Part shown: positions 281-39,036 of the stretch, in pieces
Layout of the letters: each line of letters starts with the position of its first letter
Position numbering within the stretch: the stretch's first letter is position 1
Notes under the pieces: model-generated
Told to the model about the DNA's origin: nothing
Database searches by the model: none
What the model saw: only the letters and a program-made list of their open reading frames with translations
Position numbers and translations under genes: made by a program
Source: Escherichia phage vB_Eco_F26
Sequence record: OP870145.1
Strand: one strand, 5' to 3'
DNA: 64,000 nucleotides

Positions 281-1564
281 ATGGCTAAAATCAACGAACT
301 TCTGCGCGAATCAACCACAACGAATAGCAACTCAATCGGTCGCCCAAATCTCGTTGCTTTGACTCGCGCTACCACTAAATTAATATATTCTGACATTGTA
401 GCAACGCAGAGAACTAATCAACCTGTTGCTGCTTTTTATGGTATCAAATACCTTAACCCAGACAATGAATTTACATTTAAAACTGGTGCTACTTATGCTG
501 GCGAAGCTGGATATGTAGACCGAGAACAAATCACAGAATTAACAGAAGAGTCTAAATTAACTCTCAATAAAGGCGATTTATTCAAATATAATAATATCGT
601 TTATAAAGTATTAGAAGATACACCATTTGCTGATATTGAAGAAAGTGATTTAGAATTAGCTCTTCAGATTGCAATTGTTCTTTTAAAGGTTCGTCTATTT
701 TCTGATGCTGCAGTAACAAGCAAATTTGAAAGCTCTGATAGTGAAATTGCGGATGCTAGATTCCAGATTAATAAATGGCAAACCGCAGTTAAATCTCGCA
801 AACTTAAAACTGGTATCACAGTTGAATTAGCACAAGATTTAGAAGCAAATGGATTCGATGCTCCTAATTTCTTGGAAGATTTGCTTGCAACTGAAATGGC
901 AGATGAAATCAATAAAGATATTCTGCAATCTTTGATCACAGTGTCAAAACGCTATAAAGTTACAGGAATTACTGATAGTGGATTCATCGATTTGAGTTAT
1001 GCATCTGCACCTGAAGCTGGTCGTTCATTATACCGAATGGTATGTGAAATGGTTTCACATATCCAAAAAGAATCAACTTATACAGCAACGTTCTGTGTTG
1101 CTTCAGCTCGTGCTGCTGCGATTCTTGCTGCATCAGGTTGGTTAAAACATAAACCGGAAGATGATAAATATCTTTCACAAAATGCCTACGGGTTCTTAGC
1201 TAATGGTTTACCGCTTTATTGCGATACTAACAGCCCATTAGATTATGTAATCGTTGGTGTAGTAGAAAATATCGGTGAAAAAGAAATTGTTGGATCAATT
1301 TTCTATGCTCCGTATACAGAAGGTCTCGACTTAGATGACCCTGAACATGTAGGTGCGTTTAAAGTTGTTGTTGATCCAGAAAGCTTACAGCCGTCTATCG
1401 GTTTATTAGTTAGATATGCTTTATCAGCAAATCCTTATACCGTAGCAAAAGATGAAAAAGAAGCAAGAGTAATTGATGGTGGAGACATGGATAAAATGGC
1501 GGGTCGTTCAGATTTGTCTGTTTTATTAGGTGTTAAGCTACCAAAAATTATCATTGATGAATAA
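281..1564 (+). CDS. 24: head vertex protein gp24
   Basis: 427 aa ORF; same length as T4 gp24, capsid-like fold signature, directly downstream of gene 23. Confidence 0.9.
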   Translation: MAKINELLRESTTTNSNSIGRPNLVALTRATTKLIYSDIVATQRTNQPVAAFYGIKYLNPDNEFTFKTGATYAGEAGYVDREQITELTEESKLTLNKGDLFKYNNIVYKVLEDTPFADIEESDLELALQIAIVLLKVRLFSDAAVTSKFESSDSEIADARFQINKWQTAVKSRKLKTGITVELAQDLEANGFDAPNFLEDLLATEMADEINKDILQSLITVSKRYKVTGITDSGFIDLSYASAPEAGRSLYRMVCEMVSHIQKESTYTATFCVASARAAAILAASGWLKHKPEDDKYLSQNAYGFLANGLPLYCDTNSPLDYVIVGVVENIGEKEIVGSIFYAPYTEGLDLDDPEHVGAFKVVVDPESLQPSIGLLVRYALSANPYTVAKDEKEARVIDGGDMDKMAGRSDLSVLLGVKLPKIIIDE

Positions 1565-1569
1565 AACAA

Positions 1570-1587
1570 AGGGACCTTTCGGTCCCT
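1570..1587. terminator. hairpin between convergent genes 24 and rnlB
   Basis: agggacc-tttc-ggtccct followed by ttttatt. Confidence 0.5.
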
Positions 1588-1593
1588 TTTTAT

Positions 1594-2598
1594 TTAACTT
1601 ACCAATTCAATCCAAGCCGGACGAAGTACATCTTGTACCATTTTAACTAATTCCTTTTTAATCAAAGAAGGATTATCCGCTTGAGTTAGAGTAATACCTT
1701 CACGAGAAGTTTCTTCCAAAATATCTTGAACAGTTAGCCCCATCACCTTTCCAAAATCCTTTGGACCAATTTCGCCAATTTTAGAAATAACGTTATTTAC
1801 TCGGTTCAGTGTAACGTAACAAGCTAAAATCCCCACCAATTTGTTATCAGCTTCTGACAGTTCAACTTTAGCTTTAATAGGCTTATCAGACTTTTTCTTT
1901 TCACTAAATTTGGAATTCTTGCATTTAATCGCTACACGATTGCGATTAGGCAGCCAAGAAGGATAACAAGGTTTCAATACATATCCTTCAGCAGTAAATA
2001 CTTCGCCTTTTGCTTCGGCATTCCAGACGCATTTATTTGCATCAACTAACCCAGCATGGTCTACTGTAAAATTATAATCTTGGACGACAGAATCTAAATC
2101 ATTTGGCAATTTAATAAGATCTTCAAATTTACCACGACCCAAAAGTGGAGCGATTTTAAACCCAAATGAATTACAAAACGATTCCATCATGTAATCATCA
2201 ACATAAGTTACATCACCACTTTCTGTAGTGACAATAATGTCAAATACATAAAAATCTTTATCGCCATAATCGACATTCTTCTGAATGCCAGGTCCAGCGA
2301 ATTCGCCAAAGACTTGATAAGATACAACCGCTGAGGTTTCCATAATATCTTGTACTGCTTTAATAGAATCTTCGTAATTCTTTAGAATAATTTCATACCC
2401 AAAGAAATCTTCAGCAGGAAGAATTGGTCCAGTACGTTTAGCGCAAGTTACTTTATCACGCTCAATAATCAATGAGAAATTTGTGCCGTGAATCTTTTCA
2501 CGAGCTACCCACTCCCCACCAGTCAATCCCAAGCTATAAAGTTTTTCAATAAATTTAGAGTTGTAATGATTTTCAAGACTGCTATACTTTTTAAACAT
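1594..2598 (-). CDS. rnlB: RNA ligase 2 (Rnl2)
   Basis: 334 aa; nucleotidyltransferase lysine motif KIHGTN; T4 synteny next to gene 24. Confidence 0.9.
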
Positions 2599-2607
2599 AA
2601 TTAATCC

Positions 2608-2886
2608 TCAAAATGTAATTTCTAACCAATCACCATCACGCTGATCACTATTGACTTTAAAGCTGAATCCTTCTTTTCTCAGCCAATCACCAATTTCTTC
2701 AGTAATCAATTTATCACGAGCAATACAATAATAATTAAAATGTGTTTTACCTTGTTCAGCTGCTTTATTAGCAAGTTCCGAAAAATCTTTAATAAAACAC
2801 TCTAGCTTAAACTGTTTACTTTTTAATGCTTTTTCGCGCAATTGATTAGCAAAAGATTCATTTTCATAAAGATCATACTGTTCCAT
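2608..2886 (-). CDS. hypothetical protein (T4 24.2 position)
   Basis: 92 aa ORF, codon usage consistent with neighbours. Confidence 0.5.
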   Translation of the reverse strand: MEQYDLYENESFANQLREKALKSKQFKLECFIKDFSELANKAAEQGKTHFNYYCIARDKLITEEIGDWLRKEGFSFKVNSDQRDGDWLEITF

Positions 2887-3088
2887 TTTTCACCTTTTTA
2901 TTGATATGTCTTTTTCTATAGACAACTTTTTCTCGAGTCTCAAATTTATTCTTAGCAGTCATAGCTCGAGCCCATAATACAGCCACTTCTTTTGCCTGTA
3001 AGTTCAATTCACGAGCAATTTCAATGAATGACTTTCCAGACTCATGAAGCGTAAACACCACAACCTCAGTTCTCATAATTAATCTCAT
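2873..3088 (-). CDS. hypothetical protein (T4 24.3 position)
   Basis: 71 aa ORF. Confidence 0.45.
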   Translation of the reverse strand: MRLIMRTEVVVFTLHESGKSFIEIARELNLQAKEVAVLWARAMTAKNKFETREKVVYRKRHINKKVKNGTV

Positions 3089-3155
3089 GTTATCGAGTTG
3101 GTGCCATTATATACATCATTTTCTGATTGTGTTTTGCGTGCTTTCAAAATGAAGA

Positions 3156-3173
3156 AAGGGGCCGAAGCCCCTT
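3156..3173 (-). terminator. GC hairpin (GAAG/CUUC loop) downstream of hoc
   Basis: aaggggcc-gaag-cccctt immediately after hoc stop. Confidence 0.4.
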
Positions 3174-3177
3174 ATGA

Positions 3178-4593
3178 TTATGGATAGGTATAGATGATAC
3201 CAGTTTCTAAAGCAGTTTTATGAATGATGTATCCATTACGCGATTCTTGGACATCAACTTCTGGATAGTCTTTAATCATCTTCTGAAGAGTGTAACGATG
3301 CAGGTAGTATTTACTATCTGGGTCGTCAGTTTTCCAATCTTTACCTTCTTCGGTCATTTTTTGGATTTCATCCATAACCCACCAACCGCACCAGATATAA
3401 GCTGAAGTACGATGTGGAAGAGGATGAACATAAGGTAGTTCACCTTCTGGTTCAATTGGAGTCCGTTCAGCAATAACAACTTCAGCTGTTGAACTAATTG
3501 TCTTTGAAGTGTAATTATCTTTAGTTAATACTGCTTCAACTTTAATTGTATGAGTACCCGCTGAGGAGGTATCAATACTATAAGTATTAGTAGAATTACT
3601 TTCTGCTACGTTGTCTTTCTTCCAAGAGTACACAATATTAGTATCACCAGGAGCACCAGTAACAGATGCTGTTAAAGTTGCAGTTCCACCAACAGTAGTA
3701 TTAACTGATGGCGGAGATAAAGAAATGGTGGCACTATTAAATGTCGCATTATTAGTTACTACTGTTGCTTCTGCTGAAATTTCTTTTGTAACATAATTTG
3801 TTGCAGAAACAGATGCGGTGCATTTAAGAGTTTTACTTCCGACTTCGGTCGGAGTGAATTTATACGTAGCAGAAGTTGCATCCGGAATATTACTGTCATC
3901 CATTGACCATTGGAATGTTATAGTAGCACCTGAAGGTGCACTAGAGACATTTGCAGTTAAAGTAATAGGAACACCAAAGACTGTAGTCGGAGACTCGGGT
4001 GTAATTTTTAGCGTCGAAGAATTAGCCTTTTTATTTACAGTCAAAGAAACCGCTGATGATTCTACTGTTTTATCAACGTAATCAGTTGCAGTCACTGTGA
4101 CAGAGCAAGTTATAGACTTAGTTCCTTCAGTTGTTGGTGTATATTCAAAGGTTGATTGCTTTTGACCGTCAACATCGACCCCGTCAACTTTCCATGTATA
4201 ATCAATAGCAGCACCAATAGGTTGATTGCTTACATTAGCAGTGAATGTTGTTGCTGTTCCAATTTCTACTGCCGCAGGAGAAGCCGGAGTAACAGTGATA
4301 GTGGAATTATTTTCTTTCTTATTAACAGTGATAGTTGTTGATGCTTCAGCTATTTCCGGATCTCCTGCGGAAAGTGTATTAGTTGCAACCACTTTAATTT
4401 TTTTTGTTCCTGCTGGAGAAGCAAGAGTATAATCCATTGTAGCAGCCGTAGAGCCCTGTGTTATATCATCTACAGTCCAGACGTATGTAATAGTACCGTC
4501 TGGGGTTTCACCTGCAGGTGTAGCAGTGAATGTTTGTGAACCTCCAATAACCCCTGTAGGAGTTAGAGGAGATAACGTGACAGTGAATGCCAT
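3178..4593 (-). CDS. hoc: Hoc, highly immunogenic outer capsid protein, with four tandem Ig-like domains
   Basis: 471 aa; four ~95-aa Thr/Ser-rich repeats plus C-terminal capsid-binding domain ...ELPYVHPLPHR...WCGWWVMDEIQK...IIYTYP. Confidence 0.85.
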   Translation of the reverse strand: MAFTVTLSPLTPTGVIGGSQTFTATPAGETPDGTITYVWTVDDITQGSTAATMDYTLASPAGTKKIKVVATNTLSAGDPEIAEASTTITVNKKENNSTITVTPASPAAVEIGTATTFTANVSNQPIGAAIDYTWKVDGVDVDGQKQSTFEYTPTTEGTKSITCSVTVTATDYVDKTVESSAVSLTVNKKANSSTLKITPESPTTVFGVPITLTANVSSAPSGATITFQWSMDDSNIPDATSATYKFTPTEVGSKTLKCTASVSATNYVTKEISAEATVVTNNATFNSATISLSPPSVNTTVGGTATLTASVTGAPGDTNIVYSWKKDNVAESNSTNTYSIDTSSAGTHTIKVEAVLTKDNYTSKTISSTAEVVIAERTPIEPEGELPYVHPLPHRTSAYIWCGWWVMDEIQKMTEEGKDWKTDDPDSKYYLHRYTLQKMIKDYPEVDVQESRNGYIIHKTALETGIIYTYP

Positions 4594-4602
4594 AAGTTAT
4601 CC

Positions 4603-5283
4603 TTATTTTAATGTTATGAAAGAAGAATTACGAGTTTCGCGAATTAGAACTGATCCATCGCGATTAATATAATAAATTAAGCTAAATAATGTTTGGTGTG
4701 CTGACGCATGTTCAAAACTAGTTGGGTGAGATTTCCAATCCGGAGTTTCAGCAATCCATTGATAAATCCACCAAGGAACAGTGCAGAATCCTGGATTTTT
4801 TCCAATCAGTTGAAGATTCGGACTAAAGTTTTCCGGAAGAGTAAATACAGACGGCTTTTCAGATTCAATAATCTCAGCTACAGCTTGTTCAAACTTTTCT
4901 TCAACAAACGGAGTGTCTTCAATCAAAACTGAGGTATTTTCAGGAATTTTATCCGTTTCTACTACTTCAATTTTAATGTCAGATTTAACCGGAGAATCAA
5001 TCAAAAGTGCTGCTTCTGGATTGACTTCTTCATCGTCATATTTTAATCCCTCTGCGGCATCAGCAGCATCAATTAAGTCTTTAATAGATAACCCATCAGT
5101 CTCCGGCATAGGTTCACTAGCGAGCTTCTGGAGGGCTTCTTCAATATCAACAACGATATTATCAAAAGATTTATTCTTTTTGACTTTTATACCAAACTGT
5201 TCAGCATATTCAGCTAATTTAGCTTTAGCTTCTTTATTATCATCAAGAGCCTTCAGCTCTGCAATATAATCTTTATCTATCAT
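4603..5283 (-). CDS. inh: Inh, inhibitor of prohead protease
   Basis: 226 aa acidic protein at T4 inh position between hoc and uvsW. Confidence 0.75.
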   Translation of the reverse strand: MIDKDYIAELKALDDNKEAKAKLAEYAEQFGIKVKKNKSFDNIVVDIEEALQKLASEPMPETDGLSIKDLIDAADAAEGLKYDDEEVNPEAALLIDSPVKSDIKIEVVETDKIPENTSVLIEDTPFVEEKFEQAVAEIIESEKPSVFTLPENFSPNLQLIGKNPGFCTVPWWIYQWIAETPDWKSHPTSFEHASAHQTLFSLIYYINRDGSVLIRETRNSSFITLK

Positions 5284-30630: not shown

Positions 30631-31133
30631 TTAAAAGTATTTTTTAAAACTCATCATAACTTTATCATCAACATCATTATCAATCTGTGCAACAAGGTAA
30701 GATGACAGTTCTACTTCTTGTGGCGCGGATTGAACATTATCAGAATTAAGATATTCACGAATCCAAGGATATGGGTGTTTAACCGGAGCATCGGTAATTG
30801 GGCATGGAAGACCACACTGTTTCATACGAGATACAGTTAAGTAATCAATAAAGCTCCACATGCTATTTGTATTTAATCCAGGAACATCGCCATCTTTAAA
30901 TAAATGAACTGCCCAATCTTTTTCTTGGCGGTTAACTTCCATGAAAATATCAACTGCTTCTTGTTCACACTCTTGAGCAATTTTAACCCATTCATCACCA
31001 TCAGTACCGGATTGAAGCTGACGAATAATATATTGAGTGCCTTTAAGGTGAAGCTGCTCATCACGTGCAATGAACTTCATAATCTTGGCATTACCTTCCA
31101 TGATTTCCATGTTCTTATGGAAGTTAAAGGTAC
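30631..31133 (-). CDS. nrdB: ribonucleotide reductase small subunit NrdB, exon 2
   Basis: Encodes ...TFNFHKNMEIMEGNAKIM... to C-terminus; joins exon 1 across a group I intron. Confidence 0.75.
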
Positions 31134-31725
31134 CGTTATGTTCGATTGAGCTCGCTAATTCTCAACCCGTTCTCTTATGAACTGCTACATATTACTATGC
31201 AGACCAGACTATATCACAATCCCAGAGGGATTCTCCCCATTTCGAGTCGCTTGACCCTACGTCCGAAGACTAGTCGTTGAACCTTGCTTTGCAATTGTCG
31301 CCGTGCCATCGTTTATATGTTGATGGTGATAAATCTTTCTTATCACAATATGGACAATTCAATTGAATTCTATTTGGATTTAATTTACATCTGTCATTAT
31401 GTTTTAGATAAAATCCAGGACCTTTACCAATGTGACCACAGAAATCACATGTGATTTCTTTTTGTGCAGGATGGGTCCCGTTCTTAACCATTTCTAATGT
31501 TTTTGCTGATGTTCTTTTCTTATGGTCTTCCATCAGAATCTTTAGGTAGGTCCGTTAGCATCTATCCAAATTTTTCTATAGTTCAATTGTGCATCCTCTT
31601 AAAAGTATAATCATATTATACTAATTAAAGGTGCAAGCAAAACCTTGGCTGCTAGTTTTCCTATAAAGGACTTTCTAGCAATTAAAGGAGTTTTCGATAA
31701 ACGTTACCGTTTAAAGGCGCATTTT
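31134..31725 (-). mobile_element. group I self-splicing intron in nrdB (boundaries +/- a few nt)
   Basis: Exon 1 ends GCGU with U.G pair to intron GCGC (P1); intron ends in G; predicted junction restores conserved FYVSFA-C-TFNF. Confidence 0.65.
31270..31533 (-). pseudogene. truncated I-TevIII-like intron ORF remnant
   Basis: 87 aa with Cys-rich zinc-finger-like motifs but no HNH catalytic region. Confidence 0.55.
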
Positions 31726-32401
31726 ACGCAAAAGATACATAAAAACGAATAGCTTCTAAGGCATTAATAACGTGCAAACAGAGGTAAAGAGATTTCATTA
31801 AAGCACGTTTAGCTTCGGCTTCTTGTTTAATAGCTCGGTTTAAACGAAAGTCGGCATCAGGAGATTCTTTAGCTAGTTCTACAAATTCTTTAGCATTTTC
31901 CCATTCACGGGTTTTAGTCAGAACATCATCATAATAACGACCGATAGATTCAGCACGTTTCATAATAGCTTCATCTAATACAATCTCATCAAATACCTTT
32001 GACGGATCAGTATAAAGATTTCGCATGATATGAGTATATGACCGACTGTGAATAGTTTCACTAAAAGTCCATGTAGCAACCCATGTATCAAGGCTTGGGT
32101 CTGAAAGCAATGGCATAAGTACAGCAGACGGCGCACGACCTTGAATACTATCAAGTAATGATTGATACTTCAGATTATTAGTAAAAATATTTTGTTGATA
32201 CTGAGGAAGCTTATTAAACTGTGCAGCATCCATCATTAAGTTAACTTCTTCGGGACGCCAGAAAAACGAGAGCGAACGTTCAATAAGTTCTTCAAATACT
32301 CGATGTCGTTGAATATCATAACGCGCAATTCCAAGACCAGACCCAAAAAACATAGGTTCTTTTAAAACATCGACCTGTTTAGTATTAAAAACTGTACTCA
32401 T
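31726..32401 (-). CDS. nrdB: ribonucleotide reductase small subunit NrdB, exon 1
   Basis: Ferritin-like diiron residues; ends ...NALEAIRFYVSFA immediately before intron. Confidence 0.8.
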
Positions 32402-33993
32402 TATTTTGTCCTGTAAACTAAATTTCCACAGTCCCAGATTCTTCTAAGACCATTTGCATAACAATTTTCTACTTCAGTTATTGTATCATCATAATTTTTA
32501 AGCTTGTTTTTAAGCTTATGTTTCATATAGCTTGAGCGGTGAAATACCTCTCCTTTATCGACGTACCAATAACATGGCTCAGAGATATGACTAAATTCCA
32601 TGACAGAGTCATAAACATTTGATAATGTACTGCACCATCTTCGATTGCCATAAGATAGACAATTAATTCCTTTTAATAATTTTGAGGCTCCTCCTACAAC
32701 ACAAATCCCTAATTTTGAACACATCCTTAAAAGTTCATCACCTGAGCTATATCTAGATTTACCGATAGAAATAATTTGAACTAACTCATTATTGTAATAA
32801 AGTCCTTTATACGTATGAGCTCCTGAGCAAAATCCTTGAAGATGATTCTTATTAATAAATTCTTTTGCCTCATCCTTATTAACAAAACGCGCTTTGCATT
32901 TTCGGGCTGGTATTCTTTCTGATAATCCTAATTTATGCTTTATAATGGATTTCCAGATCTCTCTTTTTGTATCATCAATCCATTCATTTTCGAAGATGTG
33001 AAGTAATTGAATTCCTTGTGCTTCACACATCTCTGTCTTCATCAAATGATAAGTTTCTTTAATTTTATCTGTTTCCTTTGACCCGCTAGAATGCCAATAA
33101 ATTCCATCGTATTCTATAGCCAATTTTTTCTCAGGAATGTAAATATCTAATTCATACGGAGGAATAATTTTTCTAGTTTCTACGCAATCAAATCCTAGAT
33201 CTAAAATGAATTGCTCTATAGAACTTTGAGTATAATGAACGTCAATTAGTCCTTTGGATGAAAGAGCTCTATAAGCCGTCATCCGAGAACAATTTGCTAA
33301 TTGTTGTAGTTCTTCTATAGAAATTTTGTAATTGATTTTATCTAGTATATCATGATTAATATGACCGTTATTTTTAATAGATTTTCCTATAGATGAATAT
33401 AACGATGCCTTATATTCTTCAGTCCAATTTAATTTAGTCTTCTTAGATTTTTCGCGAGATTTTCGAGAATTCAGAATATCAACTGATTTACCGTTTTCTA
33501 TAACTTTTCTCGCTTCTTTCACACTTTCTAATTGTGAATTATGCGTTACCCCATATCGTTTAATTAAAGTTTTTCTATTTTTATTTCTTGAAATTTTTTG
33601 ATGAGTTGTTCCATATTTTTCTAAAGAATTTTTGCGTTGAAGTTCAGACAAATATTTTTTATATTTTTCTTTTCCGCCAAAATTTGTATCACGGCTTTGA
33701 ATTCTCTTATCCGCGAAAAATATCCCTGAGCAGGATTTACTACATGTTGCTGGAAATACACGTTTCTTTGCTGTTTTCAGAGAAATGAAATTTCCACAAA
33801 CTGCACATTTTAGATCGTTAATGTCAATGCCTTCCATAATTTGGAACACATTGAGCTTAAAATCTATTCCATCAGTTAGAAGAGCTTTATCTTCTTCTGT
33901 TAGTCTAGATTTAAGTTTTTCTTCTCCAAATGGAAGAAACTTTCCGTTTTTGTATATATTATCAAACATAGCGTTATTCTTAGTTAACCACAT
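32401..33993 (-). CDS. composite nuclease-like protein: Zn-ribbon-like, KYGxTH repeats, HTH, Vsr-like (PD-(D/E)xK) nuclease domain and C-terminal Cys-rich domain
   Basis: 530 aa; YELDIYIPEKKLAIEYDGIYWHS...QGIQLLHIFENEW matches DUF559/Vsr-like core; stop overlaps nrdB start (TAATG). Confidence 0.65.
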   Translation of the reverse strand: MWLTKNNAMFDNIYKNGKFLPFGEEKLKSRLTEEDKALLTDGIDFKLNVFQIMEGIDINDLKCAVCGNFISLKTAKKRVFPATCSKSCSGIFFADKRIQSRDTNFGGKEKYKKYLSELQRKNSLEKYGTTHQKISRNKNRKTLIKRYGVTHNSQLESVKEARKVIENGKSVDILNSRKSREKSKKTKLNWTEEYKASLYSSIGKSIKNNGHINHDILDKINYKISIEELQQLANCSRMTAYRALSSKGLIDVHYTQSSIEQFILDLGFDCVETRKIIPPYELDIYIPEKKLAIEYDGIYWHSSGSKETDKIKETYHLMKTEMCEAQGIQLLHIFENEWIDDTKREIWKSIIKHKLGLSERIPARKCKARFVNKDEAKEFINKNHLQGFCSGAHTYKGLYYNNELVQIISIGKSRYSSGDELLRMCSKLGICVVGGASKLLKGINCLSYGNRRWCSTLSNVYDSVMEFSHISEPCYWYVDKGEVFHRSSYMKHKLKNKLKNYDDTITEVENCYANGLRRIWDCGNLVYRTK

Positions 33994-34009
33994 CCTTGTG
34001 GTAATTATA

Positions 34010-34999
34010 TCATAATTTACAGGATGAACAATCTTCAGCTTTTGGAGTTTCTATTTCATAATCATCAGTGCCAGAACCATCGCGGGTATTATGATAATAG
34101 AAATTTTTTCCGCCAAAATACCAAAAATACAAAAGGTCATCAATCATTATTGACATTGGAACCTTTCCTTTTGGAAAAATCTGCGGGTCATAGTATGTAT
34201 TCGCTGAAGCTGATTGACATACCCATTTCAGCATAATAGCTACCTGCGTAAGATAAGGTTTATTACCTTTCTTAGCTAATTTCCATGTATAATCATAGAG
34301 GTCTATGTTATGCTCAATATTGGGCACGACTTGATTAAAGGAGCCCTCTTTTGATTCTTTAACAGAGACTGGTCCACGTGGAGGCTCGATACCGTTTGTA
34401 CTGTTAGAAACTTGGGAAGATGACTCACATGGCATAAGTGCTGATAATGTGCTATTACGGATGCCAAAGAGCTTAAGGTCTTCCCGCAGCGCCGACCAGT
34501 CACAAACGTATTTTGGAGCTGCGATTTGGTCAATCTTTTTATTGTACCAGTCGATAGGTAATTCGCCTCGAGACCAACGAGTGTCTGAATAATATTCGCA
34601 AGGTCCTTTTTCTTTGGCGAGCTTAATGGATGCTTTAATGAGTCCATACTGTAATCTCTCAAATAGTTCATGTGTTAAATCGTTAGCATCTTCATAAGAA
34701 GCAAAGTTGCTTGCCAGCCAAGCTGCATAGTTAGTAACACCTACACCGAGGTTACGACGCTTTTTAGCTTTTTCTGCTTCAGGAACTGGATATCCTTGAT
34801 AATCCAAAAGATTATCAAGAGCGCGAACTTGAACTTCTGCCAATTCATTAATTTTATCTTGGTCTTGCCAATCGAAGTTATCCAGTACGAAGGCAGAGAG
34901 AGTACAAAGCCCCACTTCTCCCTTGTTTTCAATAACTTTTATTGTAGTATACTCATCATCTTCGTAAAATTCATCTACAAATTCATAATCAATATTCAT
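34010..34999 (-). CDS. nrdA: ribonucleotide reductase large subunit, C-terminal fragment (NrdA-b)
   Basis: 329 aa; acidic 23-aa head then ENKGEVGLCTLSAF... NSTLSALMPCESSSQ ... YYHNTRDG. Confidence 0.85.
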   Translation of the reverse strand: MNIDYEFVDEFYEDDEYTTIKVIENKGEVGLCTLSAFVLDNFDWQDQDKINELAEVQVRALDNLLDYQGYPVPEAEKAKKRRNLGVGVTNYAAWLASNFASYEDANDLTHELFERLQYGLIKASIKLAKEKGPCEYYSDTRWSRGELPIDWYNKKIDQIAAPKYVCDWSALREDLKLFGIRNSTLSALMPCESSSQVSNSTNGIEPPRGPVSVKESKEGSFNQVVPNIEHNIDLYDYTWKLAKKGNKPYLTQVAIMLKWVCQSASANTYYDPQIFPKGKVPMSIMIDDLLYFWYFGGKNFYYHNTRDGSGTDDYEIETPKAEDCSSCKL

Positions 35000-35831
35000 T
35001 TAATTCTTCTACCTTTTTTCTAGTAATTCCTAAAGCTTTAGATGCTCGATGTATTGATTGATATTCTATACCGTTTATTTTTACAGCAATTAAGTTATGG
35101 GGTTTTAATCCCTTTGGATGAGGTTTACTGACGAAAACTAAATTATCAAGCTCTGAAATCTTATCCAATTTCTTACACTTAAATCCTTTGTGATGCGCCC
35201 GTTTACCTTTACAAACGGCTGACATTGCAGATGAATTTAAATTATGCTCTTTACAAAATTCGTTAAGACCTCGATGAATTTCCTCATGACCATCCGGAAA
35301 TGTAAACACCCAAGATGTTTGAAGTCGAGATTTAACTTCTGGAGACATAGGAATACCTTTGTTCCAAGCTGGTTTGCCTTTATTATTTTCAGATACAGAA
35401 ATAGCCAATTTTCTTCTAAGCCACCCATGGCGTTTATTGGTGTTCTTTCGTTCAATATTATCTTCAGAATAAACACACATCATATTAGCGGCAAATATCA
35501 ATTTATGATTATCTGGATATATCTTTACTAATAATTGATGAGCTATGTAATGCTCTTCTGGCGTCAAATCTACCAGGTTTTCCTTTGTATCAGAACCACC
35601 AATACACAGAGGTATAATATGGTGTGATTCGGTATAGCAATCTAATTTTCTGTTCTTAGCTTTAGAAATAAGGTTATTGTAAATTTTAGAATAATCCATA
35701 ACTTTTCCTCTTGTTATGGATTATTTATTAACGGTCTGTGTACTTTATTTGCTTTGAATTATACCGCCAGGATTAGCTTCATAAAACTTAGCTACATCCG
35801 ACTTCTTAATTTTGATTAAACGGGTTTGTTG
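34930..35831 (-). mobile_element. about 0.9 kb insertion splitting nrdA (HNH gene plus new stop/start tails)
   Basis: NrdA homology ends at ...IPTNDVNS (N-part) and resumes at ENKGEVGLC (C-part); intervening DNA holds HEG. Confidence 0.55.
34989..35699 (-). CDS. Mob-type HNH homing endonuclease inserted within nrdA
   Basis: 236 aa; HHIIPLCIGGSDTKENLVDLTPEEHYIAH; paralog of ORF 6842..7534; stop overlaps NrdA-b start by 11 nt. Confidence 0.8.
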   Translation of the reverse strand: MDYSKIYNNLISKAKNRKLDCYTESHHIIPLCIGGSDTKENLVDLTPEEHYIAHQLLVKIYPDNHKLIFAANMMCVYSEDNIERKNTNKRHGWLRRKLAISVSENNKGKPAWNKGIPMSPEVKSRLQTSWVFTFPDGHEEIHRGLNEFCKEHNLNSSAMSAVCKGKRAHHKGFKCKKLDKISELDNLVFVSKPHPKGLKPHNLIAVKINGIEYQSIHRASKALGITRKKVEELNEY

Positions 35832-37178
35832 GCTATTCACATCATTTGTTGGAATAGCAATTTCACAGCACAAGTTACTCTGACGAATAGGTGCCTTTTC
35901 ACGAATAAACGGAGTATAGTTATTCGTATTATCAATGAACTGCACATAAATCCTTGCTGTTCCTGATCGTTCAGTCATGAGCAATTCAAACAGTTCACGG
36001 GCTTTAATACGCTTTTTACGAATATTAGGGTCTTTTTCTGCGGCTTCGTATAATTCACGGAAACGGTCTTGGTCTTTAAAATAAGAATAATAAAGTTCGC
36101 CACCCATTTCATGCGGACTGAACAAAGTAATGTAATCGTTCTTTCCGAATCGTTCCATCATCAAATCATTCAGCTGAACACCATAATCCATGTGACGAAT
36201 GCGGTTTTCTTCTACGCCTTTGTTATTTTTCAAAACGAGAAGATTTTCAACTTCCAAATGCCAAATAGGATAATAAGCAGTAGCAGCGCCGCCACGAATT
36301 CCACCCTGTGAACATGATTTAACAGCAGTCTGAAAATGTTTCCAAAAAGGAATAACACCAGTATGGCGTACTTCACCCATGCCAATCTTAGAACCTTCGG
36401 CACGAATCATACCAACGTTAATACCAATTCCAGCGCGTTTAGAGATATATTCAACAATTGAAGCGGAAGCCTTATTGATAGACTTTAATGAATCACCTGC
36501 CTCAATAACAACACATGAACTAAACTGTCGAGTCGGAGTACGACAACCAGCCATAATAGGAGTTGGCAATGAAATCTGTCGAGTAGATACTGCTTCATAA
36601 AAACGAATAACATGTTTTAGTCTATCAACAGGTTCATCTTGATGCAATGCCATTCCAATAGTCATAAATGCAAACTGTGGGGTTTCATAAATTTGACCGG
36701 TGGTTTTATCTTTAACTAGATATTTTTCTTTTAATTGCATCGCCCCGGAATAAGTAAATTCCATATCCCGTTCGTGCTTAATTTTTGATTCTAAAAATGT
36801 AATTTCTTCTGCTGAATATTTTGACAATAATTCAGGGTCATATTTACCTTCATTTACACAGTAAGAAATATGGTCAATAAATGAACGCGGTTCATACTGC
36901 CCATAAACATGCTTACGAAGAGCGAACATTAAACAGCGTGCAGCTACATATTGATAATCAGGTTCTTCAACCGAAATAGAATTCGCAGCAGCCTTAATGA
37001 CAATAGTCTGAATATCATCAGTTGTCATTCCATCACGGAGATAAGATTTAATATTTTCATATAATTCATAAGGATCTACTGATGTTCCCTCAGCTGCCCA
37101 AGATAAAACTTTAATAATTTTTTGTGGGTCAAAGCTCTGAGAAACACCACTACTTTTGATAACATTAATTAATTGCAT
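35745..37178 (-). CDS. nrdA: ribonucleotide reductase large subunit, N-terminal fragment (NrdA-a)
   Basis: 477 aa; ATP-cone, CRTPTRQFSSC, ...RQSNLCCEIAIPTNDVNS then basic 28-aa tail. Confidence 0.85.
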   Translation of the reverse strand: MQLINVIKSSGVSQSFDPQKIIKVLSWAAEGTSVDPYELYENIKSYLRDGMTTDDIQTIVIKAAANSISVEEPDYQYVAARCLMFALRKHVYGQYEPRSFIDHISYCVNEGKYDPELLSKYSAEEITFLESKIKHERDMEFTYSGAMQLKEKYLVKDKTTGQIYETPQFAFMTIGMALHQDEPVDRLKHVIRFYEAVSTRQISLPTPIMAGCRTPTRQFSSCVVIEAGDSLKSINKASASIVEYISKRAGIGINVGMIRAEGSKIGMGEVRHTGVIPFWKHFQTAVKSCSQGGIRGGAATAYYPIWHLEVENLLVLKNNKGVEENRIRHMDYGVQLNDLMMERFGKNDYITLFSPHEMGGELYYSYFKDQDRFRELYEAAEKDPNIRKKRIKARELFELLMTERSGTARIYVQFIDNTNNYTPFIREKAPIRQSNLCCEIAIPTNDVNSQQTRLIKIKKSDVAKFYEANPGGIIQSK

Positions 37179-37495
37179 AAGTCCTCAACTTGAAAATCGT
37201 CTTTAAACAATCGGTTAACTATATGAGCTATTATATCACCATGACACGGCTTTGGTTTACATGTGCATCCTAGCCTCATTCCACGTAAAGGCTCTAAATG
37301 TGCTTTAGTTATTTCTCCAGATTTAATTCGACGTATAAAATCTTTTTTGAATAATTCAATGGCAGCCTCCCGGCTGCCAGCATCTTTACCGACGTAATTT
37401 CCCCAAAATGTACCGCGGTGAATATTAACATCAAAGTCGGATTTATATTTATTCACTACCCGGCATAGACGGCCCACGCTGGAATAATTCTTCAT
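37169..37495 (-). CDS. DUF4326-like small protein
   Basis: 108 aa; motif [15 protein letters not shown]. Confidence 0.45.
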
Positions 37496-37712
37496 ATTGT
37501 TTTTCCGTTAAAACAGTAATATCGTAGTAACAGTCAGAAGAAGTTTTAACTGTGGAAATTTTATTATCAAAATACTCACGAGTCATTTTATGAGTATAGT
37601 ATTTTTTACCATAAATGGTAATAGGCTGTTCTGGTCCTGGAACTTCTAACTCACTTGGGTTAGGAAGTGTAAAAAGAACAACGCCAGAAGTATCTTTAAA
37701 TCGTAAAATCAT
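37449..37712 (-). CDS. hypothetical protein
   Basis: 87 aa ORF. Confidence 0.4.
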
Positions 37713-38020
37713 ATTGCCATTTTCCCTTTAATTGCTGGATGCGATTCATAATTTTCAAGGATAAAATCTTTCGGTTTCATGTATTCAGTTAACCAGTAAA
37801 GCTGTGTTTCGGTGTCACAATTTCCAAACTCTATAGGCCAATCAATTTTAAGTTCACACAGTTCTTTAGGCTCACGACGTAAAATTTCTTTACATTGCTC
37901 AGTATGATTCATATAGATGTGAGTATTACCACCAGAAAATATCAAATCTCCTGGGATAAGATTACACATCTTAGCTACAATATGAACTAGTGCAGCATAT
38001 GATGCAATATTAAACGGTAG
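37709..38020 (-). CDS. td: thymidylate synthase, exon 2
   Basis: Begins [14 protein letters not shown]...; joins exon 1 to give conserved [14 protein letters not shown]. Confidence 0.85.
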
Positions 38021-39036
38021 CATTATGTTCAGATAAGGTCGTTAATCTTACCCCGGAATTATATCCAGCTACATGTCACCATGCAGAGCAGACTATATCT
38101 CCAACTTGTTAAAGCAAGTTGTCTATCGTTTCGAGTCACTTGACCCTACTCCCCAAAGGGATAGTCGTTAGGCATTTATGTAGAACCAATTCCATTTATC
38201 AGATTTTACACGATAAGTAACTAATCCAGACGAAATTTTAAAATGTCTAGCTGCATCTGCTGCACAATCAAAAATAACCCCATCACATGAAATCTTTTTA
38301 ATATTACTAGGCTTTTTACCTTTCATCTTTTCTGATATTTTAGATTTAGTTATGTCTGAATGCTTATGATTAAAGAATGAATTATTTTCACCTGAACGAT
38401 TTCTGCATTTACTGCAAGTATAAGCAGAAGTTTGTATGCGAACACCGCACTTACAAAACTTATGGGTTTCTGGATTCCAACGCCCGTTTTTACTTCCGGG
38501 TTTACTGTAAAGAGCTTTCCGACCATCAGGTCCAAGTTTAAGCATCTTAGCTTTAACAGTTTCAGAACGTTTCTTAATAATTTCTTCTTTTAATGGATGC
38601 GTAGAACATGTATCACCAAACGTTGCATCAGCAATATTGTATCCATTAATTTTAGAATTAAGCTCTTTAATCCAAAAATTTTCTCGTTCAATAATCAAAT
38701 CTTTCTCATATGGAATTTCTTCCAAAATAGAACATTCAAACACATTACCATGTTTGTTAAAAGACCTCTGAAGTTTTATAGAAGAATGGCATCCTTTTTC
38801 TAAATCTTTAAAATGCCTCTTCCATCTCTTTTCAAAATCTTTAGCACTTCCTACATATACTTTATTGTTTAAAGTATTTTTAATCTGATAAATTCCGCTT
38901 TTCATAAATACCTCTTTAAATATAGAAGTATTTATTAAAGGGCAGTCCTACAATTTAGCACGGGATTGTCTACTAGAGAGGTTCCCCGTTTAGATAGATT
39001 ACAAGTATAAGTCACCTTATACTCAGGCCTCAATTA
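38021..39036 (-). mobile_element. td group I self-splicing intron (1016 nt)
   Basis: 5' end UAAUUGAGGCCUGAGUAUAAGGUGACUUAUACUUG... after exon CUUGGGU; 3' end ...AACAUAAUG; contains I-TevI ORF. Confidence 0.85.
38168..38905 (-). CDS. I-TevI GIY-YIG homing endonuclease
   Basis: 245 aa; MKSGIYQIKN...KVYVGSAKDFEKRWKRH GIY-YIG motif; C-terminal zinc finger and HTH. Confidence 0.9.
   Translation of the reverse strand: MKSGIYQIKNTLNNKVYVGSAKDFEKRWKRHFKDLEKGCHSSIKLQRSFNKHGNVFECSILEEIPYEKDLIIERENFWIKELNSKINGYNIADATFGDTCSTHPLKEEIIKKRSETVKAKMLKLGPDGRKALYSKPGSKNGRWNPETHKFCKCGVRIQTSAYTCSKCRNRSGENNSFFNHKHSDITKSKISEKMKGKKPSNIKKISCDGVIFDCAADAARHFKISSGLVTYRVKSDKWNWFYINA

Follow-up and report, generated by a model that had tools for sequence, protein, structure and literature searches.

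The divided nrdA locus

The 64,000-nucleotide (nt) stretch of Escherichia phage vB_Eco_F26 DNA that was analysed (sequence record OP870145.1; hereafter the window) contains nrdA, the gene of the large subunit of ribonucleotide reductase (RNR), in two pieces with an HNH endonuclease gene, mobE, between them. Three open reading frames (ORFs) make up the locus, all on the minus strand: nrdA-a (N-part), 35745..37178, 477 amino acids (aa); mobE, 34989..35699, 236 aa; nrdA-b (C-part), 34010..34999, 329 aa. The nrdA-a stop codon is separated from the mobE ATG by 45 nt (35700..35744), and the mobE stop codon and the nrdA-b ATG overlap by 11 nt. An earlier note, made from the letters alone, had described a genes-in-pieces nrdA broken up by a free-standing HNH homing-endonuclease gene; this was supported, the two nrdA ORFs and the HNH gene being found where it had placed them and alignments with E. 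coli NrdA agreeing with it. Its figure of about 190 nt of non-ORF sequence is reached only when the stretches coding for two terminal extensions (below) are counted in; the true non-ORF sequence is 45 nt.

In these alignments nrdA-a covered residues 6–455 of E. coli NrdA (expectation value (E) 1e-159) and nrdA-b ran from residue 454 to the C-terminus (E 3e-92). The break point was placed at residues ~453/454, within the active site as had been proposed, with Cys439/Glu441 on one side and Cys462 on the other; the site corresponds to the loop joining the two barrel strands that carry these residues. Pfam profiles divided in the same way: nrdA-a matched the ATP-cone, the all-alpha domain and positions 1–221 of the 523 of the barrel profile, nrdA-b positions 219–523. 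The NrdA-homologous part of nrdA-a (residues 1–449; 35832..37178, minus) comprises the ATP-cone, the all-alpha domain and the first barrel half, and includes Cys222 (E. coli C225) and Asn435/Cys437/Glu439 (E. coli N437/C439/E441). In nrdA-b, a short recoded stretch (below) is followed by the rest of the NrdA-homologous part (34010..34882, minus; second barrel half); Cys32 (E. coli C462), Tyr301/Tyr302 (E. coli Y730/Y731) and the C-terminal CSSC redox pair were all present. The catalytic residues of both pieces were invariant in an alignment of eight sequences (window and seven relatives). The same split arrangement was found in 34 deposited phage genomes, so the split is not an artefact; GenBank records label the coliphage pieces as two RNR alpha genes and a homing endonuclease.

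NrdA-a ends in a basic C-terminal tail of 28 aa (QQTRLIKIKKSDVAKFYEANPGGIIQSK; 35745..35831 with the stop codon, minus; net charge +4), and NrdA-b starts with an acidic N-terminal head of 23 aa (MNIDYEFVDEFYEDDEYTTIKVI; 34931..34999, minus; net charge −7), whose ATG is the one overlapping the mobE stop. Direct count gave the tail and head sequences and net charges as first reported, and the opposite charges of the new termini were confirmed. Both extensions are missing from the unsplit NrdA of phages vB_EcoM_G8 and T4. The earlier note had called them non-homologous; they are indeed unrelated to NrdA, but proved homologous to the extensions of Aeromonas phage Aeh1 and belong to conserved cassette sequence. 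Window and Aeh1 aligned as RLIKIKKSDVAKF against MLFKVKKSEVDKF (tail) and EFYEDDEYTTIKV against EVYEDEEYTTVEI (head), with LIKIKKSDVxxF and YEDDEYTTI, respectively, as common motifs. Comparison was extended to ten lineages, i.e., the 34 deposited Tequatrovirus and Mosigvirus genomes (counted as one), Aeh1 and eight metagenomic T4-like contigs; the tail core was L[IVF]K[IV][KR]K.[DE][VI]..F and the head core ED[DE]EYTT[ILV], at net charges of +3 to +7 (tail) and −7 to −14 (head). The proportion of nonsynonymous differences (pN) in the head was 0.06–0.15, making it the most conserved element in several comparisons. The extensions are thus conserved sequences carried by the cassette, not created at this locus.

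The edges of the insert were defined against the unsplit nrdA of phage vB_EcoM_G8 (98% identical): approximately 920 nt (window ~35832 down to ~34909) stand in place of ~21 nt of the G8 gene. Nucleotide identity to G8 was 97.5% for the nrdA-a core and 98.7% for the nrdA-b core. The left edge is sharp and lies directly after the NDVN(S) codons. At the other side, the head is followed by a cassette-derived, recoded nrdA stretch (ENKGEVGLCTLSAFVL; 34883..34930, minus), which includes Cys32; over the first 30–50 nt past the head the native protein sequence GLCTLSAFVL is kept and the codons are changed at almost every position, nucleotide identity to G8 being 69–70% here and ~99–100% just downstream. 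The right end of the cassette-type sequence varies among phages FL12, F2, JM17, AV111 and HY01 in the manner of a co-conversion tract. The recoding may guard the cassette against cleavage by its own endonuclease.

The mobE protein consists of an N-terminal HNH nuclease domain and a C-terminal I-HmuI NUMOD-like DNA-binding region (Pfam: PF22083, E 9e-10; HNH, E 0.0026, below the curated cut-off). It was 45% identical to T4 MobE across the nuclease domain (E 1e-31) and 44% identical to Aeh1 MobE over 233 aa (full length), the latter being the best match in the phage collection after 34 near-identical coliphage records; pN was well under the proportion of synonymous differences (pS) against all homologues. 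Two coliphage alleles of mobE (window type and HY01/AV111 type) are nearly identical outside a patch of ~250 nt (35100..35349, codons 118–189) in which they diverge by ~28%; the patch, spanning the NUMOD-like region, looks like a recombination patch.

An RNA hairpin with a perfect stem of 13 bp was predicted at 35690..35725 (minus); the Shine-Dalgarno sequence GAGG lies in its 10-nt loop, and the mobE AUG and the first three codons lie in the 3′ arm. Free energy: −13.8 kcal/mol, z −5.2; none of 200 shuffles folded as well. A hairpin over the mobE start region was predicted in eight of the ten lineages, and in the six alignable ones 96% of the hairpin cells were paired, with three compensatory double changes and no one-sided change. 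The 5′ arm is overlapped by a late-promoter-like box (AATAAATA; 35722..35729, minus) with one mismatch to the T4 late promoter; ATAAATA is invariant in six lineages, and the exact TATAAATA occurs in three. When a transcript begun at ~35716 (~6 nt past the box) was folded, the 5′ arm was lost and the region was unstructured. By analogy with I-TevI and Aeh1 mobE (PMC2988022), the box may act as a promoter. The arrangement fits the scheme described for both of these genes, whose early transcripts are kept from being translated while late ones are open to it (Crona 2011, figure 5 legend; review PMC2988022), and inhibition of Aeh1 MobE expression by RNA structure has been described (Crona 2011, PMC3045599; PMC2988022). 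A scan for sigma-70 promoters and terminators gave counts at chance level and was not used.

Kinship with Aeh1 and mobility of the cassette

The geometry of the locus (477 aa, 45-nt gap, 236 aa, 11-nt overlap, 329 aa) is almost that of Aeh1 (nrdA-A 473 aa, 46-nt gap, mobE 237 aa, 14-nt overlap, nrdA-B 323 aa), and the nrdA fragments of both phages break at the same alignment column. The two loci thus have in common the split site, gene order and orientation, orthologous MobE proteins, homologous basic tails and acidic heads, the mobE/nrdA-b overlap and a hairpin at the start of mobE translation. They differ in that the window belongs to a Tequatrovirus of E. coli and has the locus at the T4 position (td-nrdA-nrdB), whereas the Aeh1 nrd operon lies elsewhere; the window hairpin buries the AUG, that of Aeh1 the Shine-Dalgarno sequence; and Aeh1 has been studied by experiment, whereas the window phage is known here from its sequence. 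In Aeh1 the nrdA-a/mobE/nrdA-b/nrdB operon adjoins nrdD/nrdG at ~41–45 kb; between td and denA, at the T4 nrd position, only nrdA.1 is left. Experiments on the Aeh1 nrdA-a/mobE/nrdA-b genes were reportedly published by Friedrich et al. in 2007 (PNAS).

A search of a large protein collection for full-length MobE homologues gave identities of 67, 65, 62, 58, 55, 54, 53 and 49%, followed by Aeh1 at 44%. All eight of the metagenomic homologues that were looked up (49–67% identity) sit between NrdA-a (474–485 aa; 614 aa in one with an intein) and NrdA-b (324–329 aa). A protein search with the 75 N-terminal residues of NrdA-b gave one candidate and was uninformative. The match in geometry, in MobE identity and in the tail alignment makes the event homologous to that in Aeh1, not convergent. 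The earlier note had left the choice between an independent and a transferred event; the transferred (homologous) alternative stood and the independent one did not, with site, geometry, MobE and tails all matching.

Among the 34 genomes with the tail are those of Tequatrovirus FL12, F2 and HY01 and of Mosigvirus JM17 and AV111. Between the window and JM17/AV111 the nrdA cores are 78% identical at the nucleotide level; tail, spacer and head are 97–100% identical (tail 98–100%) and mobE 89–99%, the left cassette boundary being sharp and the right one variable. This near-identity of the cassette, despite 78% identity of nrdA, shows that the cassette has moved horizontally as one unit. For the nrdA of contig L016 the closest cultured relative is unsplit, in a Klebsiella Marfavirus (95% aa identity), and for that of L013 it is an unsplit Krischvirus gene (85% aa identity); both matches to unsplit nrdA end at the junction, so the cassette has entered several nrdA lineages separately. 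The insertions in different nrdA lineages are, as judged by sequence comparison, separate invasions by one cassette family and not separate inventions. Values of pN of 0.06–0.5 against saturated pS of 0.44–0.87 were obtained for the NrdA cores, MobE, tails and heads, showing that every part of the cassette is under purifying selection.

The locus is very probably a member of the Aeh1-type "MobE_split" cassette family and functions as in Aeh1. In that phage each fragment is translated on its own, and together they make up an active (a/b)2-beta2 enzyme; its tails are likewise basic and acidic, and their deletion abolishes activity through impaired dimerisation and holoenzyme assembly (PMC3045599). 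Crona et al. (2011, PMC3045599) have already put forward, and tested in Aeh1, the idea that opposite charges serve reassembly of the fragments. Both the split gene and what its tails do are thus published knowledge for Aeh1; a literature search found no paper analysing the coliphage split, the one mention being a sentence in a 2022 preprint (10.1101/2022.08.31.505936) in which such insertions are given as unpublished.

Two T4 elements are among the closest known systems. In the mobA cassette between gene 39 and gene 60 an HNH mob gene likewise divides an essential enzyme gene, with C-terminal and N-terminal extensions and a recoded homologous region in a single mobile element (Bonocora et al. 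2011; 10.1101/2022.08.31.505936); its target, in contrast, is a topoisomerase gene, the tails are unrelated in sequence, and it contains a 50-nt translational bypass element that the window cassette does not have. T4 mobE resembles the window gene in its HNH nuclease domain (45% identical) but is 141 aa long, without the C-terminal half, lies between nrdA and nrdB and targets nrdB.

Other explanations of the split

An origin of the tails as relics of a split intein was considered: a fractured gene of the type NrdA-IntN/endonuclease gene/IntC-NrdA (IntN and IntC, N- and C-terminal intein halves), in which splicing was lost and association kept. This is compatible with membership in the Aeh1-type family; the idea was brought up by Crona et al. 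(PMC3045599), some nrdA genes of related phages have this architecture with real split inteins, and the heads look by eye like the start of an IntC (KIEY...Y..IEVE.N). Pairing of head with IntC and tail with IntN was, however, no better than with composition-preserving shuffles (z −2.4 and −0.7), hhalign gave a probability of 0.4%, the tails have neither Cys1 nor the terminal HN, and the inteins are inserted at Cys439, 14–15 residues upstream of the mobE site. The relic origin is accordingly held to be improbable. If it were true, an ancestral fractured gene with a Mob-type HNH endonuclease, like that of contig L018 (below), would have given up protein splicing and retained just the high-affinity, charge-driven association of its halves; the tails would then be a portable, non-covalent "protein glue" that moves with the endonuclease between nrdA genes in at least five genera of phages.

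Fractured genes with split inteins (Dassa et al. 2009, PMC2677866), of which nrdA is a frequent target, resemble the window locus in their order (gene-N with extension, endonuclease gene, extension with gene-C). The window cassette differs in having no intein blocks, splicing residues or detectable similarity to them, and its NrdA fragments would stay separate, whereas those of fractured genes are ligated. A search of cluster representatives with NrdA-b showed that many split NrdA C-fragments start with an IntC half ending HN|C at Cys439. Contigs with such fragments show the fractured-gene layout. On one of them, T4-like (L018, 1..4538), nrdA is in three pieces: the first break, after ...AVKSC, contains an intein-like start and a DUF7487 gene, and the second, at Cys439, is a split intein whose halves flank a 311-aa Mob-like HNH gene. 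On another (L019, 1213..4568) a split intein that encloses a GIY-YIG endonuclease gene divides nrdA at Cys439, the classic form of this layout. The 614-aa metagenomic NrdA-a (L010, 1107..2951) contains a mini-intein at the catalytic cysteine (...ILVHN|CLEIAIPT), and the mobE cassette follows 14 residues past it; two mobile elements thus occupy ~45 nt of coding sequence.

A still less probable reading takes the split nrdA as a dead gene, inactivated by insertion of the endonuclease, in a phage that uses the host RNR and its own anaerobic NrdD. Some deposited records do treat the pieces as non-genes, HY01 leaving both unannotated, and from general knowledge of T4 the phage nrdA is auxiliary in nrd-proficient hosts. 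Against this, both ORFs are intact in the 34 genomes and in the nine other lineages, no catalytic residue varies, both halves and the tails show a pN far below pS, and the Aeh1 enzyme of the same architecture is fully active. In the HY01 record (KF925357, L008; locus 1500..4680) the annotation skips both nrdA halves and locus tags 0218 and 0220 are missing; apparently the halves were treated by the annotators as a broken gene.

Restoration of a continuous NrdA by RNA splicing, protein splicing, ribosomal bypass or frameshifting is hardly credible. In its favour, group I introns are found in td and nrdB of the same operon, inteins in nrdA of related contigs 14–15 residues upstream of the mobE site, and bypassing in T4 gene 60. 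A covariance-model check bore out the earlier claim that the insert has no intron core: a Rfam search of 33000..38500 at E ≤ 10 found the td intron and nothing in 34930..35831, and at gathering thresholds the whole window gave no match. A group I intron with an encoded endonuclease was ruled out, the insert containing no Rfam core and only 45 nt of non-coding sequence. The same note had seen no intein motifs, and this stood as well: Pfam found no Hint/intein domain, mobE shares its frame with nrdA-a but is set off from it by two TAA stops in that frame ahead of the mobE ATG, and nrdA-b is in another frame; an intein or split intein was ruled out on these grounds, and the stops and the frame change likewise oppose continuous reading. 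A bypass of ~900 nt would be without precedent, and the Aeh1 polypeptides are separate.

Equally remote is an independent, convergent insertion unrelated to the Aeh1 cassette, with tails that arose locally from fused-in sequence; MobE identity to Aeh1 is only 44%, and a preprint (10.1101/2022.08.31.505936) terms such insertions "independent but similar", but tail and head motifs, gene order, mobE/nrdA-b overlap, hairpin position and exact site are common to ten lineages, MobE identities form a graded series from 99% to 44%, and LIKIKKSDV..F and EDDEYTT are too near to invariance for a chance similarity of tails and heads.

Proposed working of the cassette and its setting

The locus being homologous to that of Aeh1 in every feature, the Aeh1 mechanism is the best explanation here. 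The cassette consists, in order, of the basic tail, a stop codon, the 45-nt spacer (late-promoter-like box and start-occluding hairpin), mobE, the acidic head and the recoded nrdA stretch. NrdA-a and NrdA-b would associate and, as in Aeh1, both the (a/b)2 dimer and an active holoenzyme with NrdB would depend on the tails; intact ORFs, invariant catalytic residues and a pN far below pS give this indirect support. On read-through transcripts the hairpin would keep mobE translation off; on late transcripts starting inside its 5′ arm, mobE would be released. During mixed infection MobE would nick or cut an unsplit nrdA near the Cys462 codons, and repair would then transfer the entire cassette, together with a co-conversion tract of short and variable length.

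Some points weigh against this account. The exact late-promoter sequence TATAAATA was not found in the window cassette, which has only the one-mismatch AATAAATA. The Shine-Dalgarno sequence lies in the loop here and in the stem in Aeh1, so repression may not be equally strong. A phage can do without its nrdA in hosts that have an RNR, and selection could in principle act on a trait other than RNR activity. Separate polypeptides, enzyme activity, the role of the tails, and the activity and cleavage site of MobE are carried over to this phage from Aeh1 by analogy.

The surroundings of the locus contain further mobile elements. In td, a group I intron was matched at 38069..38299 (minus; Rfam 37 bits, E 5.5e-7, below the gathering score), with a 245-aa ORF of I-TevI type (38168..38905, minus) as in T4. 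The nrdB gene is interrupted (30631..32401, minus; exon 1 31724..32401, exon 2 ~30631..31110); a group I intron match (31185..31425) and an 87-aa ORF (31270..31533) within it resemble the T4 nrdB intron with its defective I-TevIII. Between nrdA-b and nrdB, in the T4 mobE slot, lies an ORF of 530 aa (32401..33993, minus), annotated as "Hef-like homing endonuclease" in Salmonella phage SG1; its sole Pfam match was a weak one to REase_MTES_1575. With the td intron, the nrdB intron, the 530-aa ORF and the mobE cassette, the td-nrdA-nrdB region holds four mobile elements.

The RNR of Aeh1 has been the only genes-in-pieces one studied experimentally; the locus described here places the same cassette in T4-like coliphages, which among phages are the most tractable system for genetics. 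The split nrdA halves should not be labelled pseudogenes by annotation pipelines. The comparative data turn a single case into a family in which tails, hairpin and recoded junction travel with mobE, and which has invaded nrdA of Tequatrovirus, Mosigvirus, Cinqassovirus, Marfavirus-like and Krischvirus-like lineages. The conserved pair of short peptides is a candidate for a general protein-complementation module, and the family supports the view that a selfish endonuclease can bring its own remedy for the damage it does.

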